Below, in pieces: positions 7,268 to 64,000 of a DNA stretch of 64,000 nt. The notes beneath the pieces were generated by a model. The model was not told where the DNA came from and made no database searches. It saw nothing but the letters and a program-made list of their open reading frames with translations. A program made the position numbers and the translations under genes. The stretch is from Nemertoderma westbladi (taxonomy: Eukaryota > Animalia > Xenacoelomorpha), in assembly GCA_032718475.1 (NCBI GenBank), contig JAUCBJ010008517.1, positions 1 to 64,000 on the forward strand, given 5' to 3'. How positions within the stretch are numbered: position 1 is the stretch's first letter; each line of letters begins with the position of its first letter.

Positions 7268-7284
7268 TACGACCTGCTACTAAC

Positions 7285-10120: not shown

Positions 10121-10401
10121 TTTGCAGTTTTGTTTCGGTTATTTGGTTGTTGGTGTTATTAGAGTACAGCAGTATTACACGAAAAGGCCTACTGGAATAG
10201 GCCTACCTGCAGTACTGCAGTAGCCTGACTGGAATACTTAGTACATACTGACATAGACTGATAGAGCTGTAGAGCGCGCCGGCGCGGCAGTTAGATTTTA
10301 GTGTGCTGCACCCACACTACACAGCTACAGCACCTGTAACCTGTGTCCATATGCCATACAGTCATAACCACAAATTCAACTGTATATCGACCGGTCTGCG
10401 C

Positions 10402-21958: not shown

Positions 21959-22506
21959 TGAATAGGTTTCCAGGATTTGGAAGTCACCAAGAATTAATCG
22001 GAAACTTAAGGTCCGATTATTTAGAGCAGCAGTATTCCAGTACTCCTCTACGGGAGTCCATGCAGGGCTCTAACTGCTGAGGACACCAAATCTCTGGATG
22101 GCACATTCACAAGAATGCTACGCCGGGTTCATTGTGTCAAGTACAATGCACACATCTCCAACCAGACACTATATAACATTGGAGGTGTCTCATTGGTTCC
22201 CCCAAGCTTGACACTAGAACAAAATCGCCTCCGCTTTGCAGGACATTGCTTTCGCCGTGAGGACCAGCCAGTGCATAATCTTGTACTTTGGCAGCCTCAT
22301 GGAGTGAATAAGCATGGTGGACAGCCCATGACTTTCTTGAGACGCATCTTAAAGGACACTGGCCTTAAAGATGCGGATGATCTAGCAAATGTCATGGGTG
22401 ATAGGGAGTTGTGGCGGTGCAATTTTGTTGACAAGCCGGCACAGCATTCCTAAAAATGCAGCTGCAATGCAGCATGCCGATCCTAGTAGTAGTAGTAGTA
22501 GTAGTA
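21959..22506 (+). mobile_element. RTE-clade LINE 3' fragment with (TAG)n tail
   Basis: RLRFAGHCFRR...LVLWQP.G...DTGL...MGDRELWR C-terminal motif. 12-bp TSD gtacatgtacat at 21947-21958 and 22507-22518. Confidence 0.85.
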
Positions 22507-23069
22507 GTACATGTACATAGTGTGATGACGTTTTATATTGGTTTTAGGTTAGCGTAGTGTAATATTGTATTTGTAACCAAGTAACATAAATTGGAAATAA
22601 GCTGCAAAGCTTTAGGGGTAATCCTATATGTTATGTTGGACAATACCTTTCTACCGGTACATTGTTTGGTGTATTTGTTATTGTTTTTACATAATGTATA
22701 AATAAATCTATCTATCTATCTATAGGGCTAAATATAGCAATGCGATGTCAACAAAGACATCATTTAGAAAGTGATATATAAAACTAATTATTGGTAAATC
22801 TAAAAATAGAAATCAATAAATAAAGTAAAAGTAATAGAATTAAATAATTTAAAATTAAATACAAATAAATAAGTATTAATAAATAAAAGAGCAGAGGTGT
22901 CACTTATGACACCCTTTGCACCTCTCGGTGACACTTAGAGAACACTGATGACCCATTGTGTGTCAGGGCGCTAATCAATCTGATTAATTAGGATAATCAA
23001 TTAAACTCTAATTAGGAGTCCTAAGACCCCTATTAGGGTTTAATTGTATTGGTTTAATTAGATTCACTA

Positions 23070-24792: not shown

Positions 24793-24799
24793 TTAATTG

Positions 24800-31612: not shown

Positions 31613-31792
31613 TTAGAAACCGTATTCGGATGGGGAGCGAGACCCCACGTCTAGGTGCTGCTTCAAAGTCCGCAGAGCGACCCTGGCTCGTTGCCTAGCT
31701 ACAGTCATAATATCGTCTGCTAACTGGTGGTCGTTGGTGTAGGAAACTCTGGCGGAGTCGAATATGTCTCGAACAAATCCGATAACTTCCTC
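31613..31792 (-). CDS. MIGA: Mitoguardin terminal coding exon (EEVIGFVRDIFD...LADDIM...YGF*)
   Basis: Acceptor TTTATTTGTTCAG|GAG, phase 0. Resembles the recalled MIGA2 C-terminus (QIVQYLRDMFDLDNVRYTS..ALADDIL). Confidence 0.85.
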   Translation of the reverse strand, partial: EEVIGFVRDIFDSARVSYTNDHQLADDIMTVARQRARVALRTLKQHLDVGSRSPSEYGF

Positions 31793-33468: not shown

Positions 33469-33648
33469 CTTGAAGTAAGAACAGAGATAGTGTACCGGCC
33501 CGGCTGCTGATTCTGTAGCGAGGAACCCCCAGGCTAGGGTGGGAGTAACGGCTTCAGTAACCGAGTAGAAGCGGGACATAAACCCGTCACGGACCGGGAG
33601 ATTACGACGTTTAGTGGAGATAACGGTCCAGGTAGCGGTGGACAGGGC
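33469..33648 (-). CDS. MIGA: Mitoguardin penultimate exon (ALSTATWTVISTKRRNLPVRDGFMSRFYSVTEAVTPTLAWGFL...CSYFK), 180 nt
   Basis: Acceptor CTTTTATTTCAG|GCC and donor AAG|GTTGGT, phase 0 at both ends. Matches recalled MIGA2 ALATACWSVLKAKRR..PDGFISHFYSVSEHVSPVLAFGFLG. Confidence 0.9.
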
Positions 33649-39600: not shown

Positions 39601-40870
39601 AAAGTATAACTGTCCAGGTAGCGGTGGACAGAGCATGAAATAAAAGGATAACGGTCCAGATAGCAGTGGATAGAGCCTGAATTAAAGGATAACGGTCCAA
39701 ATAGCAGTGGACAGAGCCTGGAATAAAATTATAACGGTCCAGGTAGCAGTGGACAGAGCCTGGAATAAAGGTATAACGGTCCAGGTAGCAATGGACAAAG
39801 ACTGGAATAAAGGATAACGGTCCAGGTAGCAGTGGACAAAGACTGGAATAAAGGATAACGGTCCAGGTAGCAGTGGACAGAGCCTGGAATAAAAGTATAA
39901 CGGTCCATGTAGCAGTGGACAAAGACTGGAATAAAGGATAACGGTCCAGGTAGCAGTGGACAAAGACTGGAATAAAGGATAACGGTCCAGGTAGCAGTGG
40001 ACAAAGACTGGAATAAAGGATAACGGTCCAGGTAGCAGTGGACAAAGACTGGAATAAAGGATAACGGTCCAGGTAGCAGTGGACAAAGACTGGAATAAAG
40101 GATAACGGTCCAGGTAGCAGTGGACAAAGACTGAAATAAAGGATAACGGTCCAGGTAGCAGTGGACAAAGACTGGAATAAAGGATAACGGTCCAGGTAGC
40201 AGTGGACAAAGACTGGAATAAAGGATAACGGCCCAGGTAGCAGTGGACAGAGCCTGGAATAAAGGATAACGGTCCAGGTAGCAGTGGATAAAGACTGGAA
40301 TAAAGGATAACGGTCCAGGTAGCAGTGGACAAAGACTGGAATAAAGGATAACGGTCCAGGTAGCAGTGGACAAAGACTGGAATAAAGGATAACGGTCCAG
40401 GTAGCAGTGGACAAAGACTGGAATAAAGGATAACGGTCCAGGTAGCAGTGGACAGAGCCTGGAATAAAAGGAAAACGGTCCAGGTAGCGGTGGACAGAGC
40501 CTGAAATAAAGGATAACGGTCCAGGTAGCAGTGGACAAAGACTGGAATAAAGGATAACGGTCCAGGTAGCAGTGGACAAAGACTGAAATAAAGGATAACG
40601 ATCCAGGTAGCAGTGGACAAAGACTGGAATAAAGGATAACGGTCCAGGTAGCAGTGGACAGAGCCTGAAATAAAAGGATAACGGTCCAGGTAGCAGTGGA
40701 CAGAGCCTGCAATAAAAGGATAACGGTCCAGGTAGCAGTGGACAGAACCTGCAATAAAAGGATAACGGTCCAGGTAGCAGTGGACAAAGACTGGAATAAA
40801 GGATAACGGTCCAGGTAGCAGTGGACAGAGACTGGAATAAAATGATGACAGTCAAGGTAGTCGTGGACAG
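33619..40870 (-). repeat. 41/42-bp tandem array (~175 units) made of the splice acceptor plus the first 30 nt of the MIGA penultimate exon
   Basis: Minus-strand unit CTTT(T)ATTYCAG|GCTCTGTCCACYGCTACCTGGACCGTTATC. The last unit runs directly into unique exon sequence. Confidence 0.95.
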
Positions 40871-41483
40871 AAGAAGTCGTGGGTATATGAGTTGTTTTAT
40901 AAGGCCATAAGGACAAAAATTGCAGTCATAAAATAACGCATCGGAATCATCAAGTGTATTTCCAGCAACAGCAGGCAAATCTATGTGGCATTACAGCAAA
41001 TAACTTTAGAAACTGTATAATAATTATTCTCCTTAAGAGTTAAAGTGTAATAGCAAGAAACATGTTTCAAGGGATTTCGTCCTGCAAACGAATACTACAG
41101 CTGTCAATTCTCGCCTCTATTGCAATCCTAATAAATTGAGGTCAGATATTTAATATTTAAACGCAGTAAATATGGTAAATGGTTATCTGTTGTTTATTAT
41201 TTATTCCGAGAATGGGTAAGAATCAGAACAAACCAATCATAATGATTTACTTATAAAAAGTAACAGGGCGGCAAATTTAAACAAGTTTGCTACTTAAAAA
41301 ATCTGCCTTTAATTAACTGTAATGATTTAGGAAGTTCGAAGGCAGATCAGCTCAAACCATAAACTTCAGTAATTTAGTCAAGCGACAAGGACAACACTGT
41401 GCACTTTTGTTTACCCATGCAAACAGTTGTAAGCACCGCGATAATCGTCAACATTAATCGAATCGAATATTGATTCCAACCAT

Positions 41484-41662: not shown

Positions 41663-42880
41663 ATGGGCGACAATTCCAGAGAATTTGTAAATAAACTCTC
41701 TGATTATCCGAAATCGCGATGCAGTGAAAACGAAATTATAACCGACCAATTTAAATCGGAAGTATCTTCATTCATTTCTCGGCAACTTATATCCTTGAGT
41801 AGAAAGATAAACAGCGACAGTAAAGACCACAAAGATACGTCAATATACACCGGGGTATCTGGATATGGGTTGCTCTATTTCATACTATCCGAGAAATACT
41901 TTACCGGCGCGCAAAGTAGGGAATACCTAGAGAAATCCTTAACTATCATCGATAAACCTTTACGAGGTTTAAACGGACGTCGGTACACCTTCCTCTGTGG
42001 AGACGCCGGCCCTCTGGCATTAGGCGCCGTGCTATACCATAAACTGGATCGCCAACAACAAAGCTTACAATGCGTAGCGCAACTGGAGCAGATTTCGCAT
42101 ATCGTAAACGAAGAAGATCGTTCCGATATTCCAAACGAGATTCTATACGGTAGAGCTGGATATCTGTATAGTCTGTTATTCGTGAAACGATATATCGGTG
42201 AGAATTCTATAAAAAGTGATATTATCGATAAAACTGTTAACGCGATTCTTTATTCCGGTTACCAATTCGCGACAAAGAATAAACTAGCGACCCCGTTGAT
42301 GTACGAATGGCACGACAAAGGATATTTAGGGGCGGCCCATGGTCTCAGCGGGATTATCCACACTCTGATATTATCCGGTAGGATATCCGGCGGTAATTCC
42401 ACCAAAGATATTCTACTGTCTACCGACTTCCTTATCGATAAGCAGTTCCCGTCTGGTAACCTGCCCTCGTCTCTAGGCAACGACAAGGATCGTCTGGTGC
42501 AATGGTGCCACGGTGCACCGGGGGTGGTGTTCACGCTTCTAGAGGTCTATAAACTAACCTCCTTAGATAAATACCTCGCGGCGGCGCTTCAATGCGGACA
42601 AGTTGTCTGGGAGTGGGGACTCGTAACCAAGGGTTACGGTCTGTGTCACGGCGTGGCCGGTAACGCCTACACCTTCCTAGCGTTGTACCGCGTTACCATG
42701 GATACCAAGCACCTGCACCGAGCGTGCCAGTTCGCCAGATGGTGCCTCGATCACGGCACCCACGGATGCCGCACCCCAGACAGACCCAACTCGATGTACG
42801 AAGGTCTCGCGGGGACTATCGTCTTCATGGCCGATATGTTAAACCCAAAAGAAGCAGGATTCCCCGGATTTCAGATTTAA
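41663..42880 (+). CDS. LANCL: LanC-like protein (LanCL1/LanCL2 type), 405 aa, intronless CDS
   Basis: SIYTG..G, TFLCGDAGPLA, EILYGRAGYL, YLGAAHG, LVQWCHGAPG, KGYGLCHGVAGNAY, TPDRP.S.YEGLAG, FPGF. Zn-ligand Cys/Cys/His and the GxxHG His are intact. First ATG is at 41663 (the ORF track starts at a TTG). Candidate AATAAA at 43173. Confidence 0.95.
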   Translation: MGDNSREFVNKLSDYPKSRCSENEIITDQFKSEVSSFISRQLISLSRKINSDSKDHKDTSIYTGVSGYGLLYFILSEKYFTGAQSREYLEKSLTIIDKPLRGLNGRRYTFLCGDAGPLALGAVLYHKLDRQQQSLQCVAQLEQISHIVNEEDRSDIPNEILYGRAGYLYSLLFVKRYIGENSIKSDIIDKTVNAILYSGYQFATKNKLATPLMYEWHDKGYLGAAHGLSGIIHTLILSGRISGGNSTKDILLSTDFLIDKQFPSGNLPSSLGNDKDRLVQWCHGAPGVVFTLLEVYKLTSLDKYLAAALQCGQVVWEWGLVTKGYGLCHGVAGNAYTFLALYRVTMDTKHLHRACQFARWCLDHGTHGCRTPDRPNSMYEGLAGTIVFMADMLNPKEAGFPGFQI

Positions 42881-43424
42881 CTAAAAAGCCCCCACCCCCA
42901 CCCCTGTTCCACTGGTAAATCATATATCGTTCAGTCGCAACGTCGGCCACAATATATGTCCCATGCCATGTTCTATATTTTGACTATCTGACCTGTGATT
43001 GGTTACTTTTAGTTATCAGCAAGTCGGAAAATATTGTACAGCAATGTACAAAAAAAACTTTCAGTTTCATCTGTATTAGGCCTAATGTCTAATAGTACTG
43101 CTATTTCAAGATGTTCACTGAGGTAAGATGTTCACTGTTCTCTGTTGTGAATTGTTACGATGTATGGCCAAGAATAAATACAATATCAGTGGCAGAAGTT
43201 GTTTTTCTATCCGAATTTTAGAGGATAATAATAATATGGACGATTTACCTCCCTAGGGGGATGATGTGTCGCGTAGAAATACATGTTAAGTGTTAATTAG
43301 CGGGATATTTAAAGTACCGTCATATAACATTTACAATAAATTATTCATTTATCGGTAAAATATCCATAAACACTTGTATCTAATAGTATGGATATGAATA
43401 ATGAACAGATATAACTTAACTAAC

Positions 43425-43563
43425 CCGTTGTTTAAAGGAATCGCTTAACCATCGGTTTTGGATGGCTGCGACGACAGCCGATGGTGGATTCTCTAAGTCA
43501 TCGAAGGAATCCATTAAAACGAAGTCGAGAACAATATCGTAGAACGAAAGAGAAACAACTCCT
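43425..43563 (-). CDS. MIGA: Mitoguardin internal exon ([R]GVVSLSFYDIVLDFVLMDSFDDLENPPSAVVAAIQNRWLSDSFKQR)
   Basis: Acceptor TGTTTTACAG|A (an alternative AG lies 2 nt downstream) and donor CGG|GTTAGT, phase 0. Strongly resembles the recalled MIGA motif RGVVCMSFFDIVLDFILMDAFEDLENPP.SV.AV..NRWLSDSFKE. Confidence 0.92.
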
Positions 43564-46500
43564 CTGTAAAACAAACAATATCGTAGAACGAAAGAGAAAC
43601 AACTCCTCTGTAAAACAAACAATATCGTAGAACGAAAGAGAAACAACTCCTCTGTAAAACAAACAATATCGTAGAACGAAAGAGAAACAACTCCTCTGTA
43701 AAACAAACAATATCGTTGAATGAAAGAGAAACAACTCCTCTGTAAAACAAACAATATCGTAGAATGACAGAGAAACAACTCCTCTGTAAAACAAACAATA
43801 TCGTAGTACGAAAGAGAAACAACTCCTCTGTAAAACAAACAATATCGTAGTACGAAAGAGAAACAACTCCTCTGTAAAACAAACAATATCGTAGAACGAA
43901 AGAGAAACAACTCCTCTGTAAAACAAACAATATCGTAGAACGAAAGAGAAACAACTCCTCTGTAAAACAAACAATATCGTAGAACGAAAGAGAAACAACT
44001 CCTCTGTAAAACAAACAATATCGTAGAACGACAGAGAAACAACTCCTCTGTAAAACAAACAATATCGTAGTACGAAAGAGAAACAACTCCTCTGTAAAAC
44101 AAACAATATCGTAGAACGAAAGAGAAACAACTCCTCTGTAAAACAAACAATATCGTAGAACGAAAGAGAAACAACTCCTCTGTAAAACAAACAATATCGT
44201 AGAACGAAAGAGAAACAACTCCTCTGTAAAACAAACAATATCGTAGAACGACAGAGAAACAACTCCTCTGTAAAACAAACAATATCGTAGAACGAAAGAG
44301 AAACAACTCCTCTGTAAAACAAACAATATCATAGAACGACAGAGAAACAACTCCTCTGTAAAACAAACAATATCGTAGTACGAAAGAGAAACAACTCCTC
44401 TGTAAAACAAACAATATCGTAGAACGAAAGAGAAACAACTCCTCTGTAAAACAAACAATATCGTAGTACGAAAGAGAAACAACTCCTCTGTAAAACAAAC
44501 AATATCGTAGAACGAAAGAAAAACAACTCCTCTGTAAAACAAACAATATCGTAGAACGAAAGAAAAACAACTCCTCTGTAAAACAAACAATATCGTAGAA
44601 CGACAGAGAAACAACTCTGTAAAACAAACAATATCGTAGAACGACAGAGAAACAACTCCTCTGTAAAACAAACAATATCGTAGAACGAAAGAAAAACAAC
44701 TCCTATGTAAAACAAACAATATCGTAGAACGACAGAGAAACAACTCCTCTGTAAAACAAACAATATCGTAGAACGAAAGAGAAACAACTCCTCTGTAAAA
44801 CAAACAATATCGTAGAACGAAAGAGAAACAACTCCTCTGTAAAACAAACAATATAGTAGAACGAAAGAAAAACAACTCCTATGTAAAACAAACAATATCG
44901 TAGAACGACAGAGAAACAACTCCTCTGTAAAACAAACAATATCGTAGAACGAAAGAGAAACAACTCTGTAAAACAAACAATATCGTAGAACGACAGAGAA
45001 ACAACTCCTCTGTAAAACAAACAATATCGTAGAACGAAAGAAAAACAACTCCTATGTAAAACAAACAATATCATAGAACGAAAGAGAAACAACTCCTCTG
45101 TAAAACAAACAATATCGTAGAACGAAAGAAAAACAACTCCTATGTAAAACAAACAATATCGTAGAACGAAAGAAAAACAACTCCTATGTAAAACAAACAA
45201 TATAGTAGAACGAAAGAAAAACAACTCCTATGTAAAACAAACAATATCGTAGAACGACAGAGAAACAACTCCTCTGTAAAACAAACAATATTGTAGAACG
45301 AAAGAGAAACAACTCTGTAAAACAAACAATATCGTAGAACGAAAGAAAAACAACTCCTATGTAAAACAAACAATATCGTAGAACGACAGAGAAACAACTC
45401 CTCTGTAAAACAAACAATATCGTAGAACGAAAGAGAAACAACTCTGTAAAACAAACAATATCGTAGAACGACAGAGAAACAACTCCTCTGTAAAACAAAC
45501 AATATCGTAGAACGAAAGAAAAACAACTCCTATGTAAAACAAACAATATCGTAGAACGAAAGAGAAACAACTCCTCTGTAAAACAAACAATATCGTAGAA
45601 CGAAAGAAAAACAACTCCTATGTAAAACAAACAATATAGTAGAACGAAAGAAAAACAACTCCTATGTAAAACAAACAATATCGTAGAACGACAGAGAAAC
45701 AACTCCTCTGTAAAACAAACAATATCGTAGAACGAAAGAGAAACAACTCTGTAAAACAAACAATATCGTAGAACGACAGAGAAACAACTCCTCTGTAAAA
45801 CAAACAATATCGTAGAACGAAAGAAAAACAACTCCTATGTAAAACAAACAATATCGTAGAACGACAGAGAAACAACTCCTCTGTAAAACAAACAATATCG
45901 TAGAACGAAAGAAAAACAACTCCTATGTAAAACAAACAATATCATAGAACGACAGAGAAACAACTCCTCTGTAAAACAAACAATATCGTAGAACGAAAGA
46001 AAAACAACTCCTCTGTAAAACAAACAATATCGTAGAACGACAGAGAAACAACTCCTCTGTAAAACAAACAATATCGTAGAACGAAAGAGAAACAACTCCT
46101 CTGTAAAACAAACAATATCGTAGAACGACAGAGAAACAACTCCTCTGTAAAACAAACAATATCGTAGAATGACAGAGAAACAACTCCTCTGTAAAACAAA
46201 CAATATCGTAGAACGACAGAAAAACAACTCATCTGTAAAACAAACAATATCGTAGAACGACAGAGAAACAACTCCTCTGTAAAACAAACAATATCGTAGA
46301 ACGAAAGAAAAACAACTCCTCTGTAAAACAAACAATATCGTAGAACGACAGAGAAACAACTCCTCTGTAAAACAAACAATATCGTAGAACGAAAGAGAAA
46401 CAACTCCTCTGTAAAACAAACAATATCGTAGAACGACAGAGAAACAACTCCTCCGTAAAACAAACAATATTGTAGAACGAAAGAAAAACAACTCCTCTGT

Positions 46501-49500
46501 AAAACAAACAATATCGTAGAACGAAAGAGAAACAACTCCTCTGTAAAACAAACAATATCGTAGAATGAAAAAGAAACAACTCCTCTGTAAAACAAACAAT
46601 ATCGTAGAACGACAGAGAAACAACTCCTCTGTAAAACAAACAATATTGTAGAACGAAAGAAAAACAACTCCTCTGTAAAACAAACAATATCGTAGAACGA
46701 AAGAGAAACAACTCCTCTGTAAAACAAACAATATCGTAGAACGAAAGAGAAACAACTCCTCTGTAAAACAAACAATATCGTAGAACGAAAGAGAAACAAC
46801 TCCTCTGTAAAACAAACAATATTATAGAAAGAAAGAGAAACAACTCCTCTGTAAAACAAACAATATCGTAGAACGAAAGAGAAACAACTCCTCTGTAAAA
46901 CAAACAATATAGTAGAACGAAAGAGAAACAACTCCTCTGTAAAACAAACAATATCGTTGAACGAAAGAGAAACAACTCCTCTGTAAAACAAACAATATCG
47001 TAGAACGAAAGAGAAACAACTCCTCTGTAAAACAAACAATATCGTAGAGCGAAAGAGAAACAACTCCTCTGTAAAACAAACAATATCGTAGAACGAAAGA
47101 GAAACAACTCCTCTGTAAAACAAACAATATAGTAGAACGAAAGAGAAACAACTCCTCTGTAAAACAAACAATATCGTAGAACGAAAGAGAAACAACTCCT
47201 CTGTAAAACAAACAATATCGTTGAATGAAAGAGAAACAACTCCTCTGTAAAACAAACAATATCGTAGAACGAAAGAGAAACAACTCCTCTGTAAAACAAA
47301 CAATATCGTAGAACGAAAGAGAAACAACTCCTCTGTAAAACAAACAATATAGTAGAACGAAAGAGAAACAACTCCTCTGTAAAACAAACAATATCGTAGA
47401 ACGAAAGAGAAACAACTCCTCTGTAAAACAAACAATATAGTAGAACGAAAGAGAAACAACTCCTCTGTAAAACAAACAATATCGTTGAACGAAAGAGAAA
47501 CAACTCCTCTGTAAAACAAACAATATCGTAGAACGAAAGAGAAATAACTCCTCTGTAACACAAACAATATCGTAGAACGACAGAGAAACAACTCCTCTGT
47601 AAAACAAACAATATCGTAGAACGAAAGAAAAACAACTCCTATGTAAAACAAACAATATCGTAGAACGACAGAGAAACAACTCCTCTGTAAAACAAACAAT
47701 ATCGTAGAACGAAAGAAAAACAACTCCTATGTAAAACAAACAATATCATAGAACGACAGAGAAACAACTCCTCTGTAAAACAAACAATATCGTAGAACGA
47801 AAGAAAAACAACTCCTCTGTAAAACAAACAATATCGTAGAACGACAGAGAAACAACTCCTCTGTAAAACAAACAATATCGTAGAACGAAAGAGAAACAAC
47901 TCCTCTGTAAAACAAACAATATCGTAGAACGACAGAGAAACAACTCCTCTGTAAAACAAACAATATCGTAGAATGACAGAGAAACAACTCCTCTGTAAAA
48001 CAAACAATATCGTAGAACGACAGAAAAACAACTCCTCTGTAAAACAAACAATATCGTAGAACGACAGAGAAACAACTCCTCTGTAAAACAAACAATATCG
48101 TAGAACGAAAGAAAAACAACTCCTCTGTAAAACAAACAATATCGTAGAACGACAGAGAAACAACTCCTCTGTAAAACAAACAATATCGTAGAACGAAAGA
48201 GAAACAACTCCTCTGTAAAACAAACAATATCGTAGAACGACAGAGAAACAACTCCTCCGTAAAACAAACAATATTGTAGAACGAAAGAAAAACAACTCCT
48301 CTGTAAAACAAACAATATCGTAGAACGAAAGAGAAACAACTCCTCTGTAAAACAAACAATATCGTAGAATGAAAAAGAAACAACTCCTCTGTAAAACAAA
48401 CAATATCGTAGAACGACAGAGAAACAACTCCTCTGTAAAACAAACAATATTGTAGAACGAAAGAAAAACAACTCCTCTGTAAAACAAACAATATCGTAGA
48501 ACGAAAGAGAAACAACTCCTCTGTAAAACAAACAATATCGTAGAACGAAAGAGAAACAACTCCTCTGTAAAACAAACAATATCGTAGAACGAAAGAGAAA
48601 CAACTCCTCTGTAAAACAAACAATATTATAGAAAGAAAGAGAAACAACTCCTCTGTAAAACAAACAATATCGTAGAACGAAAGAGAAACAACTCCTCTGT
48701 AAAACAAACAATATAGTAGAACGAAAGAGAAACAACTCCTCTGTAAAACAAACAATATCGTTGAACGAAAGAGAAACAACTCCTCTGTAAAACAAACAAT
48801 ATCGTAGAACGAAAGAGAAACAACTCCTCTGTAAAACAAACAATATCGTAGAGCGAAAGAGAAACAACTCCTCTGTAAAACAAACAATATCGTAGAACGA
48901 AAGAGAAACAACTCCTCTGTAAAACAAACAATATAGTAGAACGAAAGAGAAACAACTCCTCTGTAAAACAAACAATATCGTAGAACGAAAGAGAAACAAC
49001 TCCTCTGTAAAACAAACAATATCGTTGAATGAAAGAGAAACAACTCCTCTGTAAAACAAACAATATCGTAGAACGAAAGAGAAACAACTCCTCTGTAAAA
49101 CAAACAATATCGTAGAACGAAAGAGAAACAACTCCTCTGTAAAACAAACAATATAGTAGAACGAAAGAGAAACAACTCCTCTGTAAAACAAACAATATCG
49201 TAGAACGAAAGAGAAACAACTCCTCTGTAAAACAAACAATATAGTAGAACGAAAGAGAAACAACTCCTCTGTAAAACAAACAATATCGTTGAACGAAAGA
49301 GAAACAACTCCTCTGTAAAACAAACAATATCGTAGAACGAAAGAGAAATAACTCCTCTGTAACACAAACAATATCGTAGAACGAAAGAGAAACAACTCCT
49401 CTGTAAAACAAACAATATAGTAGAACGAAAGAGAAACAACTCCTCTGTAAAACAAACAATATGGTAGAACGAAAGAGAAACAACTCCTCTGTAAAACAAA

Positions 49501-52500
49501 CAATATAGTATAACAAAAGAGAAACAACTCCTCTGTAAAACAAACAATATCATAGAACGAAAGAAAAACAACTCCTCTGTAAAACAAACAATATCGTAGA
49601 ACGAAAGAGAAACAACTCCTCTGTAAAACAAACAATATCGTAGAACGAAAGAGAAACAACTCCTCTGTAAAACAAACAATATCGTAGAATGAAAGAGAAA
49701 CAACTCCTCTGTAAAACAAACAATATCGTAGAACGAAAGAGAAACAACTCCTCTGTAAAACAAACAATATAGTAGAACGAAAGAGAAACAACTCCTCTGT
49801 AAAACAAACAATATCGTAGAACGAAAGAGAAACAACTCCTCTGTAAAACAAACAATATAGTAGAACGAAAGAGAAACAACTCCTCTGTAAAACAAACAAT
49901 ATCGTAGAACGAAAGAGAAACAACTCCTCTGTAAAACAAACAATATCGTAGTATGAAAGAGAAACAACTCCTCTGTAAAACAAACAATATCGTAGAACGA
50001 AAGAAAAACAACTCCTCTGTAAAACAAACAATATCGTAGAACGAAAGAAAAACAACTCCTCTGTAAAACAAACAATATCGTAGAACGACAGAGAAACAAC
50101 TCTGTAAAACAAACAATATCGTAGAACGACAGAGAAACAACTCCTCTGTAAAACAAACAATATCGTAGAACGAAAGAAAAACAACTCCTATGTAAAACAA
50201 ACAATATCGTAGAACAACAGAGAAACAACTCCTCTGTAAAACAAACAATATCGTAGAACGAAAGAGAAACAACTCCTCTGTAAAACAAACAATATCGTAG
50301 AACGAAAGAGAAACAACTCCTCTGTAAAACAAACAATATAGTAGAACGAAAGAAAAACAACTCCTATGTAAAACAAACAATATCGTAGAACGACAGAGAA
50401 ACAACTCCTCTGTAAAACAAACAATATCGTAGAACGAAAGAGAAACAACTCTGTAAAACAAACAATATCGTAGAACGACAGAGAAACAACTCCTCTGTAA
50501 AACAAACAATATCGTAGAACGAAAGAAAAACAACTCCTATGTAAAACAAACAATATCGTAGAACGAAAGAGAAACAACTCCTCTGTAAAACAAACAATAT
50601 CGTAGAACGAAAGAAAAACAACTCCTATGTAAAACAAACAATATCGTAGAACGAAAGAAAAACAACTCCTATGTAAAACAAACAACATAGTAGAACGAAA
50701 GAAAAACAACTCCTATGTAAAACAAACAATATCGTAGAACGACAGAGAAACAACTCCTCTGTAAAACAAACAATATCGTAGAACGAAAGAGAAACAACTC
50801 TGTAAAACAAACAATATCGTAGAACGAAAGAAAAACAACTCCTCTGTAAAACAAACAATATCGTAGAACGAAAGAGAAACAACTCCTCTGTAAAACAAAC
50901 AATATCGTAGAACGAAAAAGAAACAACTCCTCTGTAAAACAAACAATATCGTAGAACGACAGAGAAACAACTCCTCTGTAAAACAAACAATATTGTAGAA
51001 CGAAAGAAAAACAACTCCTCTGTAAAACAAACAATATCGTAGAACGAAAGAGAAACAACTCCTCTGTAAAACAAACAATATCGTAGAACGAAAGAGAAAC
51101 AACTCCTCTGTAAAACAAACAATATCGTAGAACGAAAGAGAAACAACTCCTCTGTAAAACAAACAATATTATAGAAAGAAAGAGAAACAACTCCTCTGTA
51201 AAACAAACAATATCGTAGAACGAAAGAGAAACAACTCCTCTGTAAAACAAACAATATAGTAGAACGAAAGAGAAACAACTCCTCTGTAAAACAAACAATA
51301 TCGTTGAACGAAAGAGAAACAACTCCTCTGTAAAACAAACAATATCGTAGAACGAAAGAGAAACAACTCCTCTGTAAAACAAACAATATCGTAGAACGAA
51401 AGAGAAACAACTCCTCTGTAAAACAAACAATATCGTAGAACGAAAGAGAAACAACTCCTCTGTAAAACAAACAATATAGTAGAACGAAAGAGAAACAACT
51501 CCTCTGTAAAACAAACAATATCGTAGAACGAAAGAGAAACAACTCCTCTGTAAAACAAACAATATCGTTGAATGAAAGAGAAACAACTCCTCTGTAAAAC
51601 AAACAATATCGTAGAACGAAAGAGAAACAACTCCTTTGTAAAACAAACAATATCGTAGAACGAAAGAGAAACAACTCCTCTGTAAAACAAACAATATAGT
51701 AGAACGAAAGAGAAACAACTCCTCTGTAAAACAAACAATATCGTAGAACGAAAGAGAAACAACTCCTCTGTAAAACAAACAATATAGTAGAACGAAAGAG
51801 AAACAACTCCTCTGTAAAACAAACAATATCGTTGAACGAAAGAGAAACAACTCCTCTGTAAAACAAACAATATCGTAGAACGAAAGAGAAATAACTCCTC
51901 TGTAACACAAACAATATCGTAGAACGAAAGAGAAACAACTCCTCTGTAAAACAAACAATATAGTAGAACGAAAGAGAAACAACTCCTCTGTAAAACAAAC
52001 AATATGGTAGAACGAAAGAGAAACAACTCCTCTGTAAAACAAACAATATAGTAGAACAAAAGAGAAACAACTCCTCTGTAAAACAAACAATATCGTAGAA
52101 CGAAAGAAAAACAACTCCTCTGTAAAACAAACAATATCGTAGAACGAAAGAGAAACAACTCCTCTGTAAAACAAACAATATCGTAGAACGAAAGAGAAAC
52201 AACTCCTCTGTAAAACAAACAATATCGTAGAACGAAAGAGAAACAACTCCTCTGTAAAACAAACAATATCGTAGAACGAAAGAGAAACAACTCCTCTGTA
52301 AAACAAACAATATAGTAGAACGAAAGAGAAACAACTCCTCTGTAAAACAAACAATATCGTAGAACGAAAGAGAAACAACTCCTGTAAAACAAACAATATA
52401 GTAGAACGAAAGAGAAACAACTCCTCTGTAAAACAAACAATATCATAGAACGAAAGAGAAACAACTCCTCTGTAAAACAAACAATATCGTAGTATGAAAG

Positions 52501-55500
52501 AGAAACAACTCCTCTGTAAAACAAACAATATCGTAGAACGAAAGAAAAACAACTCCTCTGTAAAACAAACAATATCGTAGAACGACAGAGAAACAACTCT
52601 GTAAAACAAACAATATCGTAGAACGACAGAGAAACAACTCCTCTGTAAAACAAACAATATCGTAGAACGAAAGAAAAACAACTCCTATGTAAAACAAACA
52701 ATATCGTAGAACGACAGAGAAACAACTCCTCTGTAAAACAAACAATATCGTAGAACGAAAAAGAAACAACTCCTCTGTAAAACAAACAATATCGTAGAAC
52801 AAAAGAGAAACAACTCCTCTGTAAAACAAACAATATAGTAGAACGAAAGAAAAACAACTCCTATGTAAAACAAACAATATCGTAGAACGACAGAGAAACA
52901 ACTCCTCTGTAAAACAAACAATATCGTAGAACGAAAGAGAAACAACTCTGTAAAACAAACAATATCGTAGAACGACAGAGAAACAACTCCTCTGTAAAAC
53001 AAACAATATCGTAGAACGAAAGAAAAACAACTCCTATGTAAAACAAACAATATCGTAGAACGAAAGAGAAACAACTCCTCTGTAAAACAAACAATATCGT
53101 AGAACGAAAGAAAAACAACTCCTATGTAAAACAAACAATATCGTAGAACGAAAGAGAAACAACTCTGTAAAACAAACAATATCGTAGAACGAAAGAAAAA
53201 CAACTCCTATGTAAAACAAACAATATCGTAGAACGACAGAGAAACAACTCCTCTGTAAAACAAACAATATCGTAGAACGAAAGAGAAACAACTCTGTAAA
53301 ACAAACAATATCGTAGAACGACAGAGAAACAACTCCTCTGTAAAACAAACAATATCGTAGAACGAAAGAAAAACAACTCCTATGTAAAATAAACAATATC
53401 GTAGAACGAAAGAGAAACAACTCCTCTGTAAAACAAACAATATCGTAGAACGAAAGAAAAACAACTCCTATGTAAAACAAACAATATAGTAGAACGAAAG
53501 AAAAACAACTCCTATGTAAAACAAACAATATCGTAGAACGACAGAGAAACAACTCCTCTGTAAAACAAACAATATCGTAGAACGAAAGAGAAACAACTCT
53601 GTAAAACAAACAATATCGTAGAACGACAGAGAAACAACTCCTCTGTAAAACAAACAATATCGTAGAACGAAAGAAAAACAACTCCTATGTAAAACAAACA
53701 ATATCGTAGAACGACAGAGAAACAACTCCTCTGTAAAGCAAACAATATCGTAGAACGAAAGAAAAACAACTCCTATGTAAAACAAACAATATCGTAGAAC
53801 GACAGAGAAACAACTCCTCTGTAAAACAAACAATATCGTAGAACGAAAGAAAAACAACTCCTCTGTAAAACAAACAATATCGTAGAACGACAGAGAAACA
53901 ACTCCTCTGTAAAACAAACAATATCGTAGAACGAAAGAGAAACAACTCCTCTGTAAAACAAACAATATCGTAGAACGACAGAGAAACAACTCCTCTGTAA
54001 AACAAACAATATCGTAGAATGACAGAGAAACAACTCCTCTGTAAAACAAACAATATCGTAGAACGACAGAAAAACAACTCCTCTGTAAAACAAACAATAT
54101 CGTAGAACGACAGAGAAACAACTCCTCTGTAAAACAAACAATATCGTAGAACGAAAGAAAAACAACTCCTCTGTAAAACAAACAATATCGTAGAACGACA
54201 GAGAAACAACTCCTCTGTAAAACAAACAATATCGTAGAACGAAAGAGAAACAACTCCTCTGTAAAACAAACAATATAGTAGAACGAAAGAGAAACAACTC
54301 CTCTGTAAAACAAACAATATCGTAGAACGAAAGAGAAACAACTCCTCTGTAAAACAAACAATATAGTAGAACGAAAGAGAAACAACTCCTCTGTAAAACA
54401 AACAATATCGTTGTACGAAAGAGAAACAACTCCTCTGTAAAACAAACAATATCGTAGAACGAAAGAGAAATAACTCCTCTGTAACACAAACAATATCGTA
54501 GAACGAAAGAGAAACAACTCCTCTGTAAAACAAACAATATAGTAGAACGAAAGAGAAACAACTCCTCTGTAAAACAAACAATATGGTAGAACGAAAGAGA
54601 AACAACTCCTCTGTAAAACAAACAATATAGTAGAACAAAAGAGAAACAACTCCTCTGTAAAACAAACAATATCGTAGAACGAAAGAAAAACAACTCCTCT
54701 GTAAAACAAACAATATCGTAGAACGAAAGAGAAACAACTCCTCTGTAAAACAAACAATATCGTAGAACGAAAGAAAAACAACTCCTATGTAAAACAAACA
54801 ATATCGTAGAACGACAGAGAAACAACTCCTCTGTAAAGCAAACAATATCGTAGAACGAAAGAAAAACAACTCCTATGTAAAACAAACAATATCGTAGAAC
54901 GACAGAGAAACAACTCCTCTGTAAAACAAACAATATCGTAGAACGAAAGAAAAACAACTCCTCTGTAAAACAAACAATATCGTAGAACGACAGAGAAACA
55001 ACTCCTCTGTAAAACAAACAATATCGTAGAACGAAAGAGAAACAACTCCTCTGTAAAACAAACAATATCGTAGAACGACAGAGAAACAACTCCTCTGTAA
55101 AACAAACAATATCGTAGAATGACAGAGAAACAACTCCTCTGTAAAACAAACAATATCGTAGAACGACAGAAAAACAACTCCTCTGTAAAACAAACAATAT
55201 CGTAGAACGACAGAGAAACAACTCCTCTGTAAAACAAACAATATCGTAGAACGAAAGAAAAACAACTCCTCTGTAAAACAAACAATATCGTAGAACGACA
55301 GAGAAACAACTCCTCTGTAAAACAAACAATATCGTAGAACGAAAGAGAAACAACTCCTCTGTAAAACAAACAATATCGTAGAACGACAGAGAAACAACTC
55401 CTCCGTAAAACAAACAATATTGTAGAACGAAAGAAAAACAACTCCTCTGTAAAACAAACAATATCGTAGAACGAAAGAGAAACAACTCCTCTGTAAAACA

Positions 55501-58500
55501 AACAATATCGTAGAATGAAAAAGAAACAACTCCTCTGTAAAACAAACAATATCGTAGAACGACAGAGAAACAACTCCTCTGTAAAACAAACAATATTGTA
55601 GAACGAAAGAAAAACAACTCCTCTGTAAAACAAACAATATCGTAGAACGAAAGAGAAACAACTCCTCTGTAAAACAAACAATATCGTAGAACGAAAGAGA
55701 AACAACTCCTCTGTAAAACAAACAATATCGTAGAACGAAAGAGAAACAACTCCTCTGTAAAACAAACAATATTATAGAAAGAAAGAGAAACAACTCCTCT
55801 GTAAAACAAACAATATCGTAGAACGAAAGAGAAACAACTCCTCTGTAAAACAAACAATATAGTAGAACGAAAGATAAACAACTCCTCTGTAAAACAAACA
55901 ATATCGTTGAACGAAAGAGAAACAACTCCTCTGTAAAACAAACAATATCGTAGAACGAAAGAGAAACAACTCCTCTGTAAAACAAACAATATCGTAGAAC
56001 GAAAGAGAAACAACTCCTCTGTAAAACAAACAATATCGTAGAACGAAAGGGAAACAACTCCTCTGTAAAACAAACAATATAGTAGAACGAAAGAGAAACA
56101 ACTCCTCTGTAAAACAAACAATATCGTAGAACGAAAGAGAAACAACTCCTCTGTAAAAGAAACAATATCGTTGAATGAAAGAGAAACAACTCCTCTGTAA
56201 AACAAACAATATCGTAGAACGAAAGAGAAACAACTCCTCTGTAAAACAAACAATATCGTAGAACGAAAGAGAAACAACTCCTCTGTAAAACAAACAATAT
56301 AGTAGAACGAAAGAGAAACAACTCCTCTGTAAAACAAACAATATCGTAGAACGAAAGAGAAACAACTCCTCTGTAAAACAAACAATATAGTAGAACGAAA
56401 GAGAAACAACTCCTCTGTAAAACAAACAATATCGTTGTACGAAAGAGAAACAACTCCTCTGTAAAACAAACAATATCGTAGAACGAAAGAGAAATAACTC
56501 CTCTGTAACACAAACAATATCGTAGAACGAAAGAGAAACAACTCCTCTGTAAAACAAACAATATAGTAGAACGAAAGAGAAACAACTCCTCTGTAAAACA
56601 AACAATATGGTAGAACGAAAGAGAAACAACTCCTCTGTAAAACAAACAATATAGTAGAACAAAAGAGAAACAACTCCTCTGTAAAACAAACAATATCGTA
56701 GAACGAAAGAAAAACAACTCCTCTGTAAAACAAACAATATCGTAGAACGAAAGAGAAACAACTCCTCTGTAAAACAAACAATATCGTAGAACGAAAGAGA
56801 AACAACTCCTCTGTAAAACAAACAATATCGTAGAACGAAAGAGAAACAACTCCTCTGTAAAACAAACAATATCGTAGAACGAAAGAGAAACAACTCCTCT
56901 GTAAAACAAACAATATAGTAGAACGAAAGAGAAACAACTCCTCTGTAAAACAAACAATATCGTAGAACGAAAGAGAAACAACTCCTCTGTAAAACAAACA
57001 ATATAGTAGAACGAAAGAGAAACAACTCCTCTGTAAAACAAACAATATCGTAGAACGAAAGAGAAACAACTCCTCTGTAAAACAAACAATATCGTAGTAT
57101 GAAAGAGAAACAACTCCTCTGTAAAACAAACAATATCGTAGAACGAAAGAAAAACAACTCCTCTGTAAAACAAACAATATCGTAGAACGAAAGAAAAACA
57201 ACTCCTCTGTAAAACAAACAATATCGTAGAACGACAGAGAAACAACTCTGTAAAACAAACAATATCGTAGAACGACAGAGAAACAACTCCTCTGTAAAAC
57301 AAACAATATCGTAGAACGAAAGAAAAACAACTCCTATGTAAAACAAACAATATCGTAGAACGACAGAGAAACAACTCCTCTGTAAAACAAACAATATCGT
57401 AGAACGAAAGAGAAACAACTCCTCTGTAAAACAAACAATATCGTAGAACGAAAGAGAAACAACTCCTCTGTAAAACAAACAATATAGTAGAACGAAAGAA
57501 AAACAACTCCTATGTAAAACAAACAATATCGTAGAACGACAGAGAAACAACTCCTCTGTAAAACAAACAATATCGTAGAACAAAAGAGAAACAACTCTGT
57601 AAAACAAACAATATCGTAGAACGACAGAGAAACAACTCCTCTGTAAAACAAACAATATCGTAGAACGAAAGAAAAACAACTCCTATGTAAAACAAACAAT
57701 ATCGTAGAACGAAAGAGAAACAACTCCTCTGTAAAACAAACAATATCGTAGAACGAAAGAAAAACAACTCCTATGTAAATGTAAAACAAACAATATCGTA
57801 GAACGAAAGAAAAACAACTCCTATGTAAAACAAACAACATAGTAGAACGAAAGAAAAACAACTCCTATGTAAAACAAACAATATCGTAGAACGACAGAGA
57901 AACAACTCCTCTGTAAAACAAACAATATCGTAGAACGAAAGAGAAACAACTCTGTAAAACAAACAATATCGTAGAACGAAAGAAAAACAACTCCTCTGTA
58001 AAACAAACAATATCGTAGAACGAAAGAGAAACAACTCCTCTGTAAAACAAACAATATCGTAGAACGAAAAAGAAACAACTCCTCTGTAAAACAAACAATA
58101 TCGTAGAACGACAGAGAAACAACTCCTCTGTAAAACAAACAATATTGTAGAACGAAAGAAAAACAACTCCTCTGTAAAACAAACAATATCGTAGAACGAA
58201 AGAGAAACAACTCCTCTGTAAAACAAACAATATCGTAGAACGAAAGAGAAACAACTCCTCTGTAAAACAAACAATATCGTAGAACGAAAGAGAAACAACT
58301 CCTCTGTAAAACAAACAATATTATAGAAAGAAAGAGAAACAACTCCTCTGTAAAACAAACAATATCGTAGAACGAAAGAGAAACAACTCCTCTGTAAAAC
58401 AAACAATATAGTAGAACGAAAGAGAAACAACTCCTCTGTAAAACAAACAATATCGTTGAACGAAAGAGAAACAACTCCTCTGTAAAACAAACAATATCGT

Positions 58501-61500
58501 AGAACAAAAGAGAAACAACTCCTCTGTAAAACAAACAATATCGTAGAACGAAAGAAAAACAACTCCTCTGTAAAACAAACAATATCGTAGAACGAAAGAG
58601 AAACAACTCCTCTGTAAAACAAACAATATAGTAGAACGAAAGAGAAACAACTCCTCTGTAAAACAAACAATATCGTAGAACGAAAGAGAAACAACTCCTC
58701 TGTAAAACAAACAATATCATTGAATGAAAGAGAAACAACTCCTCTGTAAAACAAACAATATCGTAGAACGAAAGAGAAACAACTCCTCTGTAAAACAAAC
58801 AATATCGTAGAACGAAAGAGAAACAACTCCTCTGTAAAACAAACAATATAGTAGAACGAAAGAGAAACAACTCCTCTGTAAAACAAACAATATCGTAGAA
58901 CGAAAGAGAAACAACTCCTCTGTAAAACAAACAATATAGTAGAACGAAAGAGAAACAACTCCTCTGTAAAACAAACAATATCGTTGAACGAAAGAGAAAC
59001 AACTCCTCTGTAAAACAAACAATATCGTAGAACGAAAGAGAAATAACTCCTCTGTAACACAAACAATATCGTAGAACGAAAGAGAAACAACTCCTCTGTA
59101 AAACAAACAATATAGTAGAACGAAAGAGAAACAACTCCTCTGTAAAACAAACAATATGGTAGAACGAAAGAGAAACAACTCCTCTGTAAAACAAACAATA
59201 TAGTAGAACAAAAGAGAAACAACTCCTCTGTAAAACAAACAATATCGTAGAACGAAAGAAAAACAACTCCTCTGTAAAACAAACAATATCGTAGAACGAA
59301 AGAGAAACAACTCCTCTGTAAAACAAACAATATCGTAGAACGAAAGAGAAACAACTCCTCTGTAAAACAAACAATATCGTAGAACGAAAGAGAAACAACT
59401 CCTCTGTAAAACAAACAATATCGTAGAACGAAAGAGAAACAACTCCTCTGTAAAACAAACAATATAGTAGAACGAAAGAGAAACAACTCCTCTGTAAAAC
59501 AAACAATATCGTAGAACGAAAGAGAAACAACTCCTCTGTAAAACAAACAATATAGTAGAACGAAAGAGAAACAACTCCTCTGTAAAACAAACAATATCGT
59601 AGAACGAAAGAGAAACAACTCCTCTGTAAAACAAACAATATCGTAGTATGAAAGAGAAACAACTCCTCTGTAAAACAAACAATATCGTAGAACGAAAGAA
59701 AAACAACTCCTCTGTAAAACAAACAATATCGTAGAACGAAAGAAAAACAACTCCTCTGTAAAACAAACAATATCGTAGAACGACAGAGAAACAACTCTGT
59801 AAAACAAACAATATCGTAGAACGACAGAGAAACAACTCCTCTGTAAAACAAACAATATCGTAGAACGAAAGAAAAACAACTCCTATGTAAAACAAACAAT
59901 ATCGTAGAACGACAGAGAAACAACTCCTCTGTAAAACAAACAATATCGTAGAACGAAAGAGAAACAACTCCTCTGTAAAACAAACAATATCGTAGAACGA
60001 AAGAGAAACAACTCCTCTGTAAAACAAACAATATAGTAGAACGAAAGAAAAACAACTCCTATGTAAAACAAACAATATCGTAGAACGACAGAGAAACAAC
60101 TCCTCTGTAAAACAAACAATATCGTAGAACGAAAGAGAAACAACTCTGTAAAACAAACAATATCGTAGAACGACAGAGAAACAACTCCTCTGTAAAACAA
60201 ACAATATCGTAGAACGAAAGAAAAACAACTCCTATGTAAAACAAACAATATCGTAGAACGAAAGAGAAACAACTCCTCTGTAAAACAAACAATATCGTAG
60301 AACGAAAGAAAAACAACTCCTATGTAAAACAAACAATATCGTAGAACGAAAGAAAAACAACTCCTATGTAAAACAAACAACATAGTAGAACGAAAGAAAA
60401 ACAACTCCTATGTAAAACAAACAATATCGTAGAACGACAGAGAAACAACTCCTCTGTAAAACAAACAATATCGTAGAACGAAAGAGAAACAACTCTGTAA
60501 AACAAACAATATCGTAGAACGAAAGAAAAACAACTCCTATGTAAAACAAACAATATCGTAGAACGACAGAGAAACAACTCCTCTGTAAAACAAACAATAT
60601 CGTAGAACGAAAGAGAAACAACTCTGTAAAACAAACAATATCGTAGAACGACAGAGAAACAACTCCTCTGTAAAACAAACAATATCGTAGAACAAAAGAA
60701 AAACAACTCCTATGTAAAACAAACAATATCGTAGAACGAAAGAGAAACAACTCCTCTGTAAAACAAACAATATCGTAGAACGAAAGAAAAACAACTCCTA
60801 TGTAAAACAAACAATATAGTAGAACGAAAGAAAAACAACTCCTATGTAAAACAAACAATATCGTAGAACGACAGAGAAACAACTCCTCTGTAAAACAAAC
60901 AATATCGTAGAACGAAAGAGAAACAACTCTGTAAAACAAACAATATCGTAGAACGACAGAGAAACAACTCCTCTGTAAAACAAACAATATCGTAGAACGA
61001 AAGAAAAACAACTCCTATGTAAAACAAACAATATCGTAGAACGACAGAGAAACAACTCCTCTGTAAAACAAACAATATCGTAGAACGAAAGAAAAACAAC
61101 TCCTATGTAAAACAAACAATATCGTAGAACGACAGAGAAACAACTCCTCTGTAAAACAAACAATATCGTAGAACGAAAGAAAAACAACTCCTCTGTAAAA
61201 CAAACAATATCGTAGAACGACAGAGAAACAACTCCTCTGTAAAACAAACAATATCGTAGAATGAAAGAGAAACAACTCCTCTGTAAAACAAACAATATCG
61301 TAGAACGACAGAGAAACAACTCCTCTGTAAAACAAACAATATCGTAGAATGACAGAGAAACAACTCCTCTGTAAAACAAACAATATCGTAGAACGACAGA
61401 AAAACAACTCCTCTGTAAAACAAACAATATCGTAGAACGACAGAGAAACAACTCCTCTGTAAAACAAACAATATCGTAGAACGAAAGAAAAACAACTCCT

Positions 61501-64000
61501 CTGTAAAACAAACAATATCGTAGAACGACAGAGAAACAACTCCTCTGTAAAACAAACAATATCGTAGAACGAAAGAGAAACAACTCCTCTGTAAAACAAA
61601 CAATATCGTAGAACGACAGAGAAACAACTCCTCCGTAAAACAAACAATATTGTAGAACGAAAGAAAAACAACTCCTCTGTAAAACAAACAATATCGTAGA
61701 ACGAAAGAGAAACAACTCCTCTGTAAAACAAACAATATCGTAGAACGAAAAAGAAACAACTCCTCTGTAAAACAAACAATATCGTAGAACGACAGAGAAA
61801 CAACTCCTCTGTAAAACAAACAATATTGTAGAATGAAAGAAAAACAACTCCTCTGTAAAACAAACAATATCGTAGAACGAAAGAGAAACAACTCCTCTGT
61901 AAAACAAACAATATCGTAGAACGAAAGAGAAACAACTCCTCTGTAAAACAAACAATATCGTAGAACGAAAGAGAAACAACTCCTCTGTAAAACAAACAAT
62001 ATTATAGAAAGAAAGAGAAACAACTCCTCTGTAAAACAAACAATATCGTAGAACGAAAGAGAAACAACTCCTCTGTAAAACAAACAATATAGTAGAACGA
62101 AAGAGAAACAACTCCTCTGTAAAACAAACAATATCGTTGAACGAAAGAGAAACAACTCCTCTGTAAAACAAACAATATCGTAGAACGAAAGAGAAACAAC
62201 TCCTCTGTAAAACAAACAATATCGTAGAACGAAAGAGAAACAACTCCTCTGTAAAACAAACAATATCGTAGAACGAAAGAGAAACAACTCCTCTGTAAAA
62301 CAAACAATATAGTAGAACGAAAGAGAAACAACTCCTCTGTAAAACAAACAATATCGTAGAACGAAAGAGAAACAACTCCTCTGTAAAACAAACAATATCG
62401 TTGAACGAAAGAGAAACAACTCCTCTGTAAAACAAACAATATCGTAGAACGAAAGAGAAACAACTCCTCTGTAAAACAAACAATATCGTAGAACGAAAGA
62501 GAAACAACTCCTCTGTAAAACAAACAATATAGTAGAATGAAAGAGAAACAACTCCTCTGTAAAACAAACAATATCGTAGAACGAAAGAGAAACAACTCCT
62601 CTGTAAAACAAACAATATAGTAGAACAAAAGAGAAACAACTCCTCTGTAAAACAAACAATATCGTTGAACGAAAGAGAAACAACTCCTCTGTAAAACAAA
62701 CAATATCGTAGAACGAAAGAGAAACAACTCCTCTGTAAAACAAACAATATCGTAGAACGAAAGAGAAACAACTCCTCTGTAAAACAAACAATATAGTAGA
62801 ACGAAAGAGAAACAACTCCTCTGTAAAACAAACAATATGGTAGAACGAAAGAGAAACAACTCCTCTGTAAAACAAACAATATCGTAGAACGAAAGAGAAA
62901 CAACTCCTCTGTAAAACAAACAATATCATTGAATGAAAGAGAAACAACTCCTCTGTAAAACAAACAATATCGTAGAACGAAAGAGAAACAACTCCTCTGT
63001 AAAACAAACAATATCGTAGAACGAAAGAGAAACAACTCCTCTGTAAAACAAACAATATAGTAGAACGAAAGAGAAACAACTCCTCTGTAAAACAAACAAT
63101 ATCGTAGAACGAAAGAGAAACAACTCCTCTGTAAAACAAACAATATAGTAGAACGAAAGAGAAACAACTCCTCTGTAAAACAAACAATATCGTTGAACGA
63201 AAGAGAAACAACTCCTCTGTAAAACAAACAATATCGTAGAACGAAAGAGAAATAACTCCTCTGTAACACAAACAATATCGTAGAACGAAAGAGAAACAAC
63301 TCCTCTGTAAAACAAACAATATAGTAGAACGAAAGAGAAACAACTCCTCTGTAAAACAAACAATATGGTAGAACGAAAGAGAAACAACTCCTCTGTAAAA
63401 CAAACAATATAGTAGAACAAAAGAGAAACAACTCCTCTGTAAAACAAACAATATCGTAGAACGAAAGAAAAACAACTCCTCTGTAAAACAAACAATATCG
63501 TAGAACGAAAGAGAAACAACTCCTCTGTAAAACAAACAATATCGTAGAACGAAAGAGAAACAACTCCTCTGTAAAACAAACAATATCGTAGAACGAAAGA
63601 GAAACAACTCCTCTGTAAAACAAACAATATCGTAGAACGAAAGAGAAACAACTCCTCTGTAAAACAAACAATATAGTAGAACGAAAGAGAAACAACTCCT
63701 CTGTAAAACAAACAATATCGTAGAACGAAAGAGAAACAACTCCTCTGTAAAACAAACAATATAGTAGAACGAAAGAGAAACAACTCCTCTGTAAAACAAA
63801 CAATATCGTAGAACGAAAGAGAAACAACTCCTCTGTAAAACAAACAATATCGTAGTATGAAAGAGAAACAACTCCTCTGTAAAACAAACAATATCGTAGA
63901 ACGAAAGAAAAACAACTCCTCTGTAAAACAAACAATATCGTAGAACGAAAGAAAAACAACTCCTCTGTAAAACAAACAATATCGTAGAACGACAGAGAAA
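43530..64000 (-). repeat. 44-bp tandem array (>=465 units, runs off the window) made of the splice acceptor plus the first 34 nt of the MIGA exon at 43563
   Basis: Minus-strand unit TGTTTTACAG|AGGAGTTGTTTCTCTTTCGTTCTACGATATTGTT. The last unit continues as CTCGACTTC into unique exon sequence. Confidence 0.97.

Follow-up and report, generated by a model that had tools for sequence, protein, structure and literature searches.

Acceptor-spanning satellite arrays at two consecutive MIGA exons of Nemertoderma westbladi fit an extreme form of mirage minisatellite

The stretch of DNA analysed here comprises 64,000 nt of the genome of the xenacoelomorph Nemertoderma westbladi (assembly GCA_032718475.1, contig JAUCBJ010008517.1, positions 1 to 64,000) and is referred to as the window. 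It carries on its minus strand three exons of a MIGA gene, two of which begin inside tandem arrays whose units span the splice acceptor: a 44-nt satellite at exon A (array A) and a 41/42-nt satellite at exon B (array B). The features concerned, with array B as delimited by Tandem Repeats Finder (TRF), are as follows.

43425..43563, minus strand: MIGA exon A, 139 nt, phase 2 at entry and phase 0 at exit
43564..43573, minus strand: putative real acceptor of exon A, in the last unit of array A
43419..43424, minus strand: donor GTTAGT of exon A, at a position equal in 26/49 homologous loci
43530..64000, minus strand: array A, acceptor-spanning satellite of 466 or more units, not closed within the window
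33469..33648, minus strand: MIGA exon B, 180 nt, in phase 0 at both ends, followed by donor GTTGGT
33619..40871, minus strand: array B, 41/42-nt acceptor-spanning satellite, 7.2 kb (TRF)
31613..31792, minus strand: coding part of MIGA exon C (the last exon), ends in a stop codon; acceptor without array

Exon A encodes positions 395-439 of the Miga domain (PF10265, E 7e-23), with 78% identity to the best of 24 matches; exons B and C were located by tblastn with 7 of these 24 homologues. The reading frame continues from exon A into exon B with no stop codon, exon C is open for 59 codons and then reaches a normally placed stop, and the window peptide fits all 12 invariant columns of the alignment with the homologues (alignment A1). 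The last codon of exon A (43425-43427, minus strand) encodes R, while most homologues have T (F-K-E-T). Judged by its reading frame, splice sites and invariant residues, all of which are kept, this MIGA gene looks intact. Arrays are present at two of the four acceptors identified in the window (those of exons A, B and C and of one CUB/sushi gene) and at none of the three donors identified. All three donors carry T at position +3 (43424 GTTAGT, 33468 GTTGGT and 7284 GTTAGT, minus strand), which may be a splice-site trait of the lineage (n = 3).

In the 64-kb window, TRF describes array A as 466.6 copies of a 44-nt period with 95% matches, from 43530 to 64000. A sequence-only reading of the locus had correctly placed more than 20 kb of array before a 139-nt exon (43563-43425) ending at GTTAGT; as the array reaches the window end at 64000, its length is at least 20.4 kb and the unit number is a lower bound. 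The same reading had taken the units for copies of the exon head and intron end, and this holds: in each, 34 nt of exon head are joined to 10 nt of intron end. The commonest unit equals the head of exon A at 34/34 positions. Segmentation gave 466 acceptor positions, the real one included. The 465 units fall into 55 types; 442 measure 44 nt, 21 measure 41 nt and 2 have other lengths. The array shows higher-order periods of 58, 163 and 221 units, and its longest exact repeats, which span 25-30 units or 1.1-1.3 kb, are offset by 41, 58 and 96 units; the nested duplications are imperfect and there is no N. The F or the D of the invariant F-Y-D motif is altered in 100/442 units. Within the window, copies of the heads of exons A and B are found only in their own arrays. 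Both arrays form an annotation trap, with false open reading frames (ORFs) of up to 596 aa.

The acceptor positions of an array other than the real one are called decoys below. At least 465 intact acceptors identical to the real one had been counted in array A; the 465 decoy positions are indeed there, but only 410 end in CAG, the other 55 being without AG (50 CAT, 4 CGG and 1 CAA), and the exact 10+5-nt motif quoted for them is present in 377/465. The picture of identical competitors 44 nt apart likewise applies to a subset and fails for the rest: among 408 decoys scored for identity (two at the window edge were excluded), identity to the real site extends from -14 to +34 in 141 and from -44 to +34 in 47, and the nearest decoy is identical over this longer span. 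Branch sites are marked by the motif yTnAy, which has 481 matches in the approximately 465 units. That the branch point and pyrimidine tract of exon A must lie in exon-derived sequence, as had been argued, is likely but not forced, since the sole yTnAy match in the commonest unit (TTTAC at -48) belongs to the intron-derived part of the previous unit and the pyrimidine tract begins with 10 nt that are intron-derived too. A TGTT microhomology had further been proposed to have seeded the first duplication. The junction does not show this, as both TGTT copies persist there, whereas slippage between them would leave one copy and a 40-nt unit; such seeding requires another TGTT just upstream in the original intron, beyond the window.

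The unit of array B consists of 30 nt of exon head and 11-12 nt of intron end. AG is present at 172 of the 174 acceptor positions (171/173 decoys), and the array is bounded on both sides by unique sequence. Its distal unit is degenerate, with 7/41 positions that differ from the consensus unit. At the other end, two third-codon positions in the head of exon B carry a base other than the commonest one of the array, both changes being synonymous; the similarity of the units to exon B declines with distance (rho 0.31, the units not being independent), and among the 173 units, numbered from exon B, only 2-53 have the exon-state codon variant. Array B units are unrelated in sequence to those of array A, so that acceptor amplification occurred twice in MIGA. 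A common origin of arrays A and B and of a 62-nt array elsewhere in the window was rejected, their similarity not being above that of shuffles.

For comparison, we used 49 MIGA loci from metagenome contigs, which represent distant eukaryotes and no sister species, are partly redundant and partly intronless or spliced, offer 23 to 5000 nt of upstream sequence, and have the start of exon B misplaced in two cases. Repeated 14-mers upstream of acceptor A number 1315 in the window and 0 in 49/49 homologous loci, a difference in self-duplication that shows array A not to be a product of chance; at exon B the numbers are 534 in the window and 0 in 44/44 loci with an exon B match. No duplicated acceptor region was found in the 49 loci for exon A or in the 44 for exon B, many of which have no intron there.

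An intron near the start of exon A is present in 13 of these loci, 35 read through and one is unclear. All 13, some of which are near-duplicates, have it 4 nt downstream of 43563, where it splits R-G from V, and the upstream exon, located in five of them, ends in R-G followed by GT. The intron with array A occupies a non-ancestral position, 4 nt upstream of the site in the 13 intron-bearing loci; the intron between exons A and B, which contains array B, is ancestral, with GT at the equal position in 26/49 loci. No AG stands in front of the V codon in the window, so that the array A intron and the ancestral one make up a near-intron pair with any of the candidate AGs (43563, 43561 or 43558). 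The favoured acceptor is 43563, as it comes first among the clustered AGs and restores R-G-V; in human data on AGs spaced by less than 9 nt, the upstream one is used in nearly every case (PMC9225289). Near-intron pairs of Drosophila (PMC2891723) similarly have a new intron a few nt from an ancient one, at a conserved exon. Unlike in nine sliding cases described there, the array A offset of 4 nt is not a multiple of three, and unlike in the Drosophila duplication cases the array A unit is without an AG/GY proto-splice site.

Both arrays have the four features of mirage minisatellites that sequence can show: a boundary-spanning unit of minisatellite size (10-160 bp in PMC3087553), partial retention of the splice signal and concerted evolution. 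They fit this class, which is already known and of which they are an extreme case. Mirages have been described in amphioxus in the globin genes BflGb6 and BflGb9 and in Adh3 (PMC3087553), as well as in the troponin C and PGBD5 genes (PMC3902484). As there, the units, arranged head to tail, combine an intron's 3' end with the next exon's 5' part, the splice signal is kept in many but not all units (here 410/465 and 171/173), and concerted evolution inside the array is accompanied by a diverged boundary unit (here in array B). The MIGA arrays differ from those of amphioxus in copy number (at least 466 and 174, compared with 3-6 in BflGb6 and three of the 108-bp repeat in PGBD5) and in that two consecutive exons are hit, with unrelated units and with one intron at a non-ancestral position.

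Two human situations are also related. In CBS 844ins68, an intron/exon junction is likewise duplicated with identical 3' splice sites and the distal copy is used (as cited in PMC1802585); in contrast to MIGA, there are two copies and the choice depends on G runs, whereas the array A unit has no G run longer than GG. Expanded CAG repeats also form a tandem repeat that offers many AG acceptors to an upstream donor (PMC10614865), but they are trinucleotide disease expansions that are used aberrantly, while in MIGA the repeated element is the gene's own acceptor with its exon head. An acceptor mirage of hundreds of copies was not found in a literature search whose reach largely excluded subscription papers.

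Donor sites were scored by U1 pairing, a crude count against a consensus. The best GT scores 5.5 in array A and 6 in array B, compared with 7.5 and 6.5 for the real donors, and none of the 2391 GT sites of array A or the 392 of array B reaches 6.5, so that the decoys would be unable to define exons of their own. The lack of donor-like GT in the arrays agrees with the earlier suggestion that the last AG is selected from the downstream donor; the contest would nevertheless involve about four sites and not 465, the decoys that give an exon of 300 nt or less being 3 in array A and 2 in array B. Most intact decoys lead to a stop codon before the donor (402/410 in array A and 169/171 in array B). 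The open in-frame options are 8 decoys in array A, which add 132n nt, and 2 in array B, which add 42 or 207 nt.

Several other explanations of how the decoys might be silenced or used were considered and rejected. Premature polyadenylation inside the arrays is contradicted by the count of AATAAA or ATTAAA, which is 0 on the sense strand of both, and micro-exons via the unit-internal GTTTGT would be 31 nt long and frame-shifting, with a donor score of 5. Hairpin masking of the decoys does not hold either, because predicted folding does not separate real and decoy sites: CAG is predicted to be unpaired with a probability of 0.37 at the real A site and 0.32 (median) in 408 decoys, 0.42 at the real B site and 0.24 in 171 decoys, and in 24 homologous acceptors this probability ranges from 0.01 to 0.89, spanning all A and B values (folding z-scores, -1.2 to -2.0). 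A weak hint is that the nearest array B decoys fold tighter (0.03-0.05 in 4/5). Purging of decoys close to exon A is not seen, AG being intact in the 26 nearest units. G(-1) is among the most variable positions of array A (50/442 44-nt units), and the variant alleles of this array show no synonymous bias (5/26 versus 14/73, p = 1.0), so we see no sign of selection on its decoys at the sequence level. In array B, variants are synonymous in 14/27 versus 17/63 (p = 0.03, one of two post-hoc tests); we do not retain this excess as a signal of selection, as it is absent in array A and confounded by C-rich third positions.

Taken together, we consider it probable that both arrays are neutral giant mirage satellites which are tolerated through exon definition and nonsense-mediated decay (NMD) and are likely spliced out whole. 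One duplication across an acceptor would have been harmless, and slippage or unequal crossing-over could then have enlarged and homogenised the array. The exon head, which resembles the array consensus in B and equals it in A, would take part in ordinary satellite turnover; such turnover is suggested by the periods of 58, 163 and 221 units in array A, by the diverged distal unit of array B and by the restriction of its codon variant to units 2-53. With long introns on both sides, exon A would be defined across its length: U1 at GTTAGT, together with enhancers in the 105 nt that are unique to the exon, may stabilise U2/U2AF on the nearest acceptor, while the roughly 400 partnerless acceptors transcribed before it would at no time become committed. 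The decoys could be tolerated because they have no partner donor and only the last copies precede one, and a discriminating signal would have to lie in the unique part of the exon or in the donor, because the nearest array A decoy is identical as far as +34. Most slips would be cleared by NMD, and the leaks that survive would add 132n nt at exon A and 42 or 207 nt at exon B. An exon-centric proximity rule between long introns is described for human splicing (PMC9225289).

A number of observations weigh against this interpretation. For human 3' sites at least 20 nt apart, the upstream preference is only "significantly reduced" under exon definition (PMC9225289), and a reduced upstream bias would not by itself lead to the exclusive use of the last identical site, which is the main gap in the mechanism. 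The nearest array A decoy matches the real site from -44 to +34. Repeated acceptors are not inert in every case, since upstream donors can be spliced to expanded CAG repeats (PMC10614865), and the use of acceptor 43563 is something that we infer. The nearest array B decoy is in frame and open, adding 14 aa, so that NMD would spare its product, and AG is retained at 172/174 positions of this array. Finally, with T at +3 in all three donors of the window, human rules may fit poorly.

The 410 and 171 intact AG decoys, with 47 identical from -44 to +34 and with 8 and 2 open in-frame options, would also be expected if the decoys were leaky and array length tuned the output of MIGA, NMD removing most of the products and leaving a few in-frame variants (+44 aa at A and +14 aa at B); the use of CAG-repeat acceptors (PMC10614865) points in the same direction. 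However, the insertions would hit the best-conserved part of the Miga domain, no frame is enriched among the array A decoys (139/138/133 per frame), and normal mRNA is produced from published mirages (PMC3087553, PMC3902484), so that we regard a regulatory leak as unlikely.

It is still less likely that the array has disabled this MIGA copy, or that its length was inflated by misassembly. Array A is longer than a typical long read and runs past the window, it contains the exact repeats of 25-30 units at offsets of 41, 58 and 96 units, and the conserved T before the donor of exon A is replaced by R. On the other hand, 55 unit types, imperfect nested duplications and the absence of N point to turnover and not to a looped contig, array B is closed by unique sequence on both sides, and the reading frame, splice sites and invariant residues of the gene are intact.

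The non-ancestral position of the first intron, with 13/13 homologous introns 4 nt downstream at R-G/V, raises the question of whether array A could itself be a new intron: the ancestral R-G/V intron would have been lost and an exonic 44-nt piece with a chance acceptor amplified to more than 20 kb, with a far-end donor made by an AG to GT change in the first unit. In the frame of the exon, the last unit reads L-F-Y-R-G-V, comparable to the conserved E-L-x-x-R-G-V, and AGGAGT after CAG would match the donor consensus but for +1/+2 (U1 score 6.5). For a wholly exon-derived unit, as in the Rogers tandem-duplication model of intron gain, L and R fit, but F and Y are found at their positions in 0/35 distinct homologous motifs; the far end of the array, where the upstream exon would have to adjoin it, lies beyond 64000. 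Moreover, the 10-nt part reads as a textbook acceptor, array B is an ordinary mirage at an ancestral intron of the same gene, and, although the novel position agrees with the model, the unit offers AG-AG and not the AG-GY proto-splice site that it requires (PMC2891723). We therefore regard an origin of the intron from the array as very improbable.

At a recursive splice site, the acceptor AG is directly followed by a regenerated donor. Stepwise intron removal with the units acting as recursive (ratchet) sites is the least probable reading, for although hundreds of evenly spaced acceptors lie in long introns and many array B units read CAG then GC, the AG after the array A acceptor regenerates no donor and the junction GC sites of array B score at most 5 on U1 pairing, compared with 6.5-7.5 for the real donors.

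Under the interpretation of a neutral mirage satellite, the value of the MIGA arrays would lie in their scale: they are larger than the published cases found, doubled in one gene and associated with a shifted intron. Given correct splicing of MIGA, at least 410 intact acceptors, of which 47 match the real site over 78 nt, are passed over by the upstream donor. RNA polymerase II proceeds at 1-4 kb per minute, so that transcription of more than 20 kb takes minutes, and the locus would then be an unusually clean natural test of the idea that commitment of the 3' splice site awaits the downstream donor and is not a matter of first come. The arrays moreover set hundreds of near-identical templates beside a conserved exon head, and the +42 nt product of exon B would be an NMD-independent reporter of leakage.

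Other features of the window are as follows.

41663..42880, plus strand: intronless LanC-like (PF05147) ORF, 405 aa, antisense in the intron between exons A and B
1455-10138, minus strand: gene of a CUB/sushi-type membrane protein, its domains judged by eye from the translation
23061-24781: 62-nt array, about 28 copies, unrelated to arrays A and B, no exon link seen
18366-19059: 10-nt tandem array, about 68 copies, which yields spurious Cys/Leu-rich ORFs

The LanC-like ORF lies between exon A and array B and shows at most 50% identity among the 120 matches listed, which include no close relative of the animal; a search with exon B likewise gave no scored match among 40 candidates. AATAAA occurs at 43173 and again at 43335, which lies about 90 nt from the donor of exon A. 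The CUB/sushi gene consists of two very large exons separated by one phase-1 intron (7284-2771), with no array at the intron ends. ORF fragments at 24736-26936, adjoining the 62-nt array, resemble a retrotransposon integrase region, and the plus-strand ORFs at 14019-15512, 21306-21800 and 22025-22453 resemble pieces of a non-LTR (long terminal repeat) reverse transcriptase.

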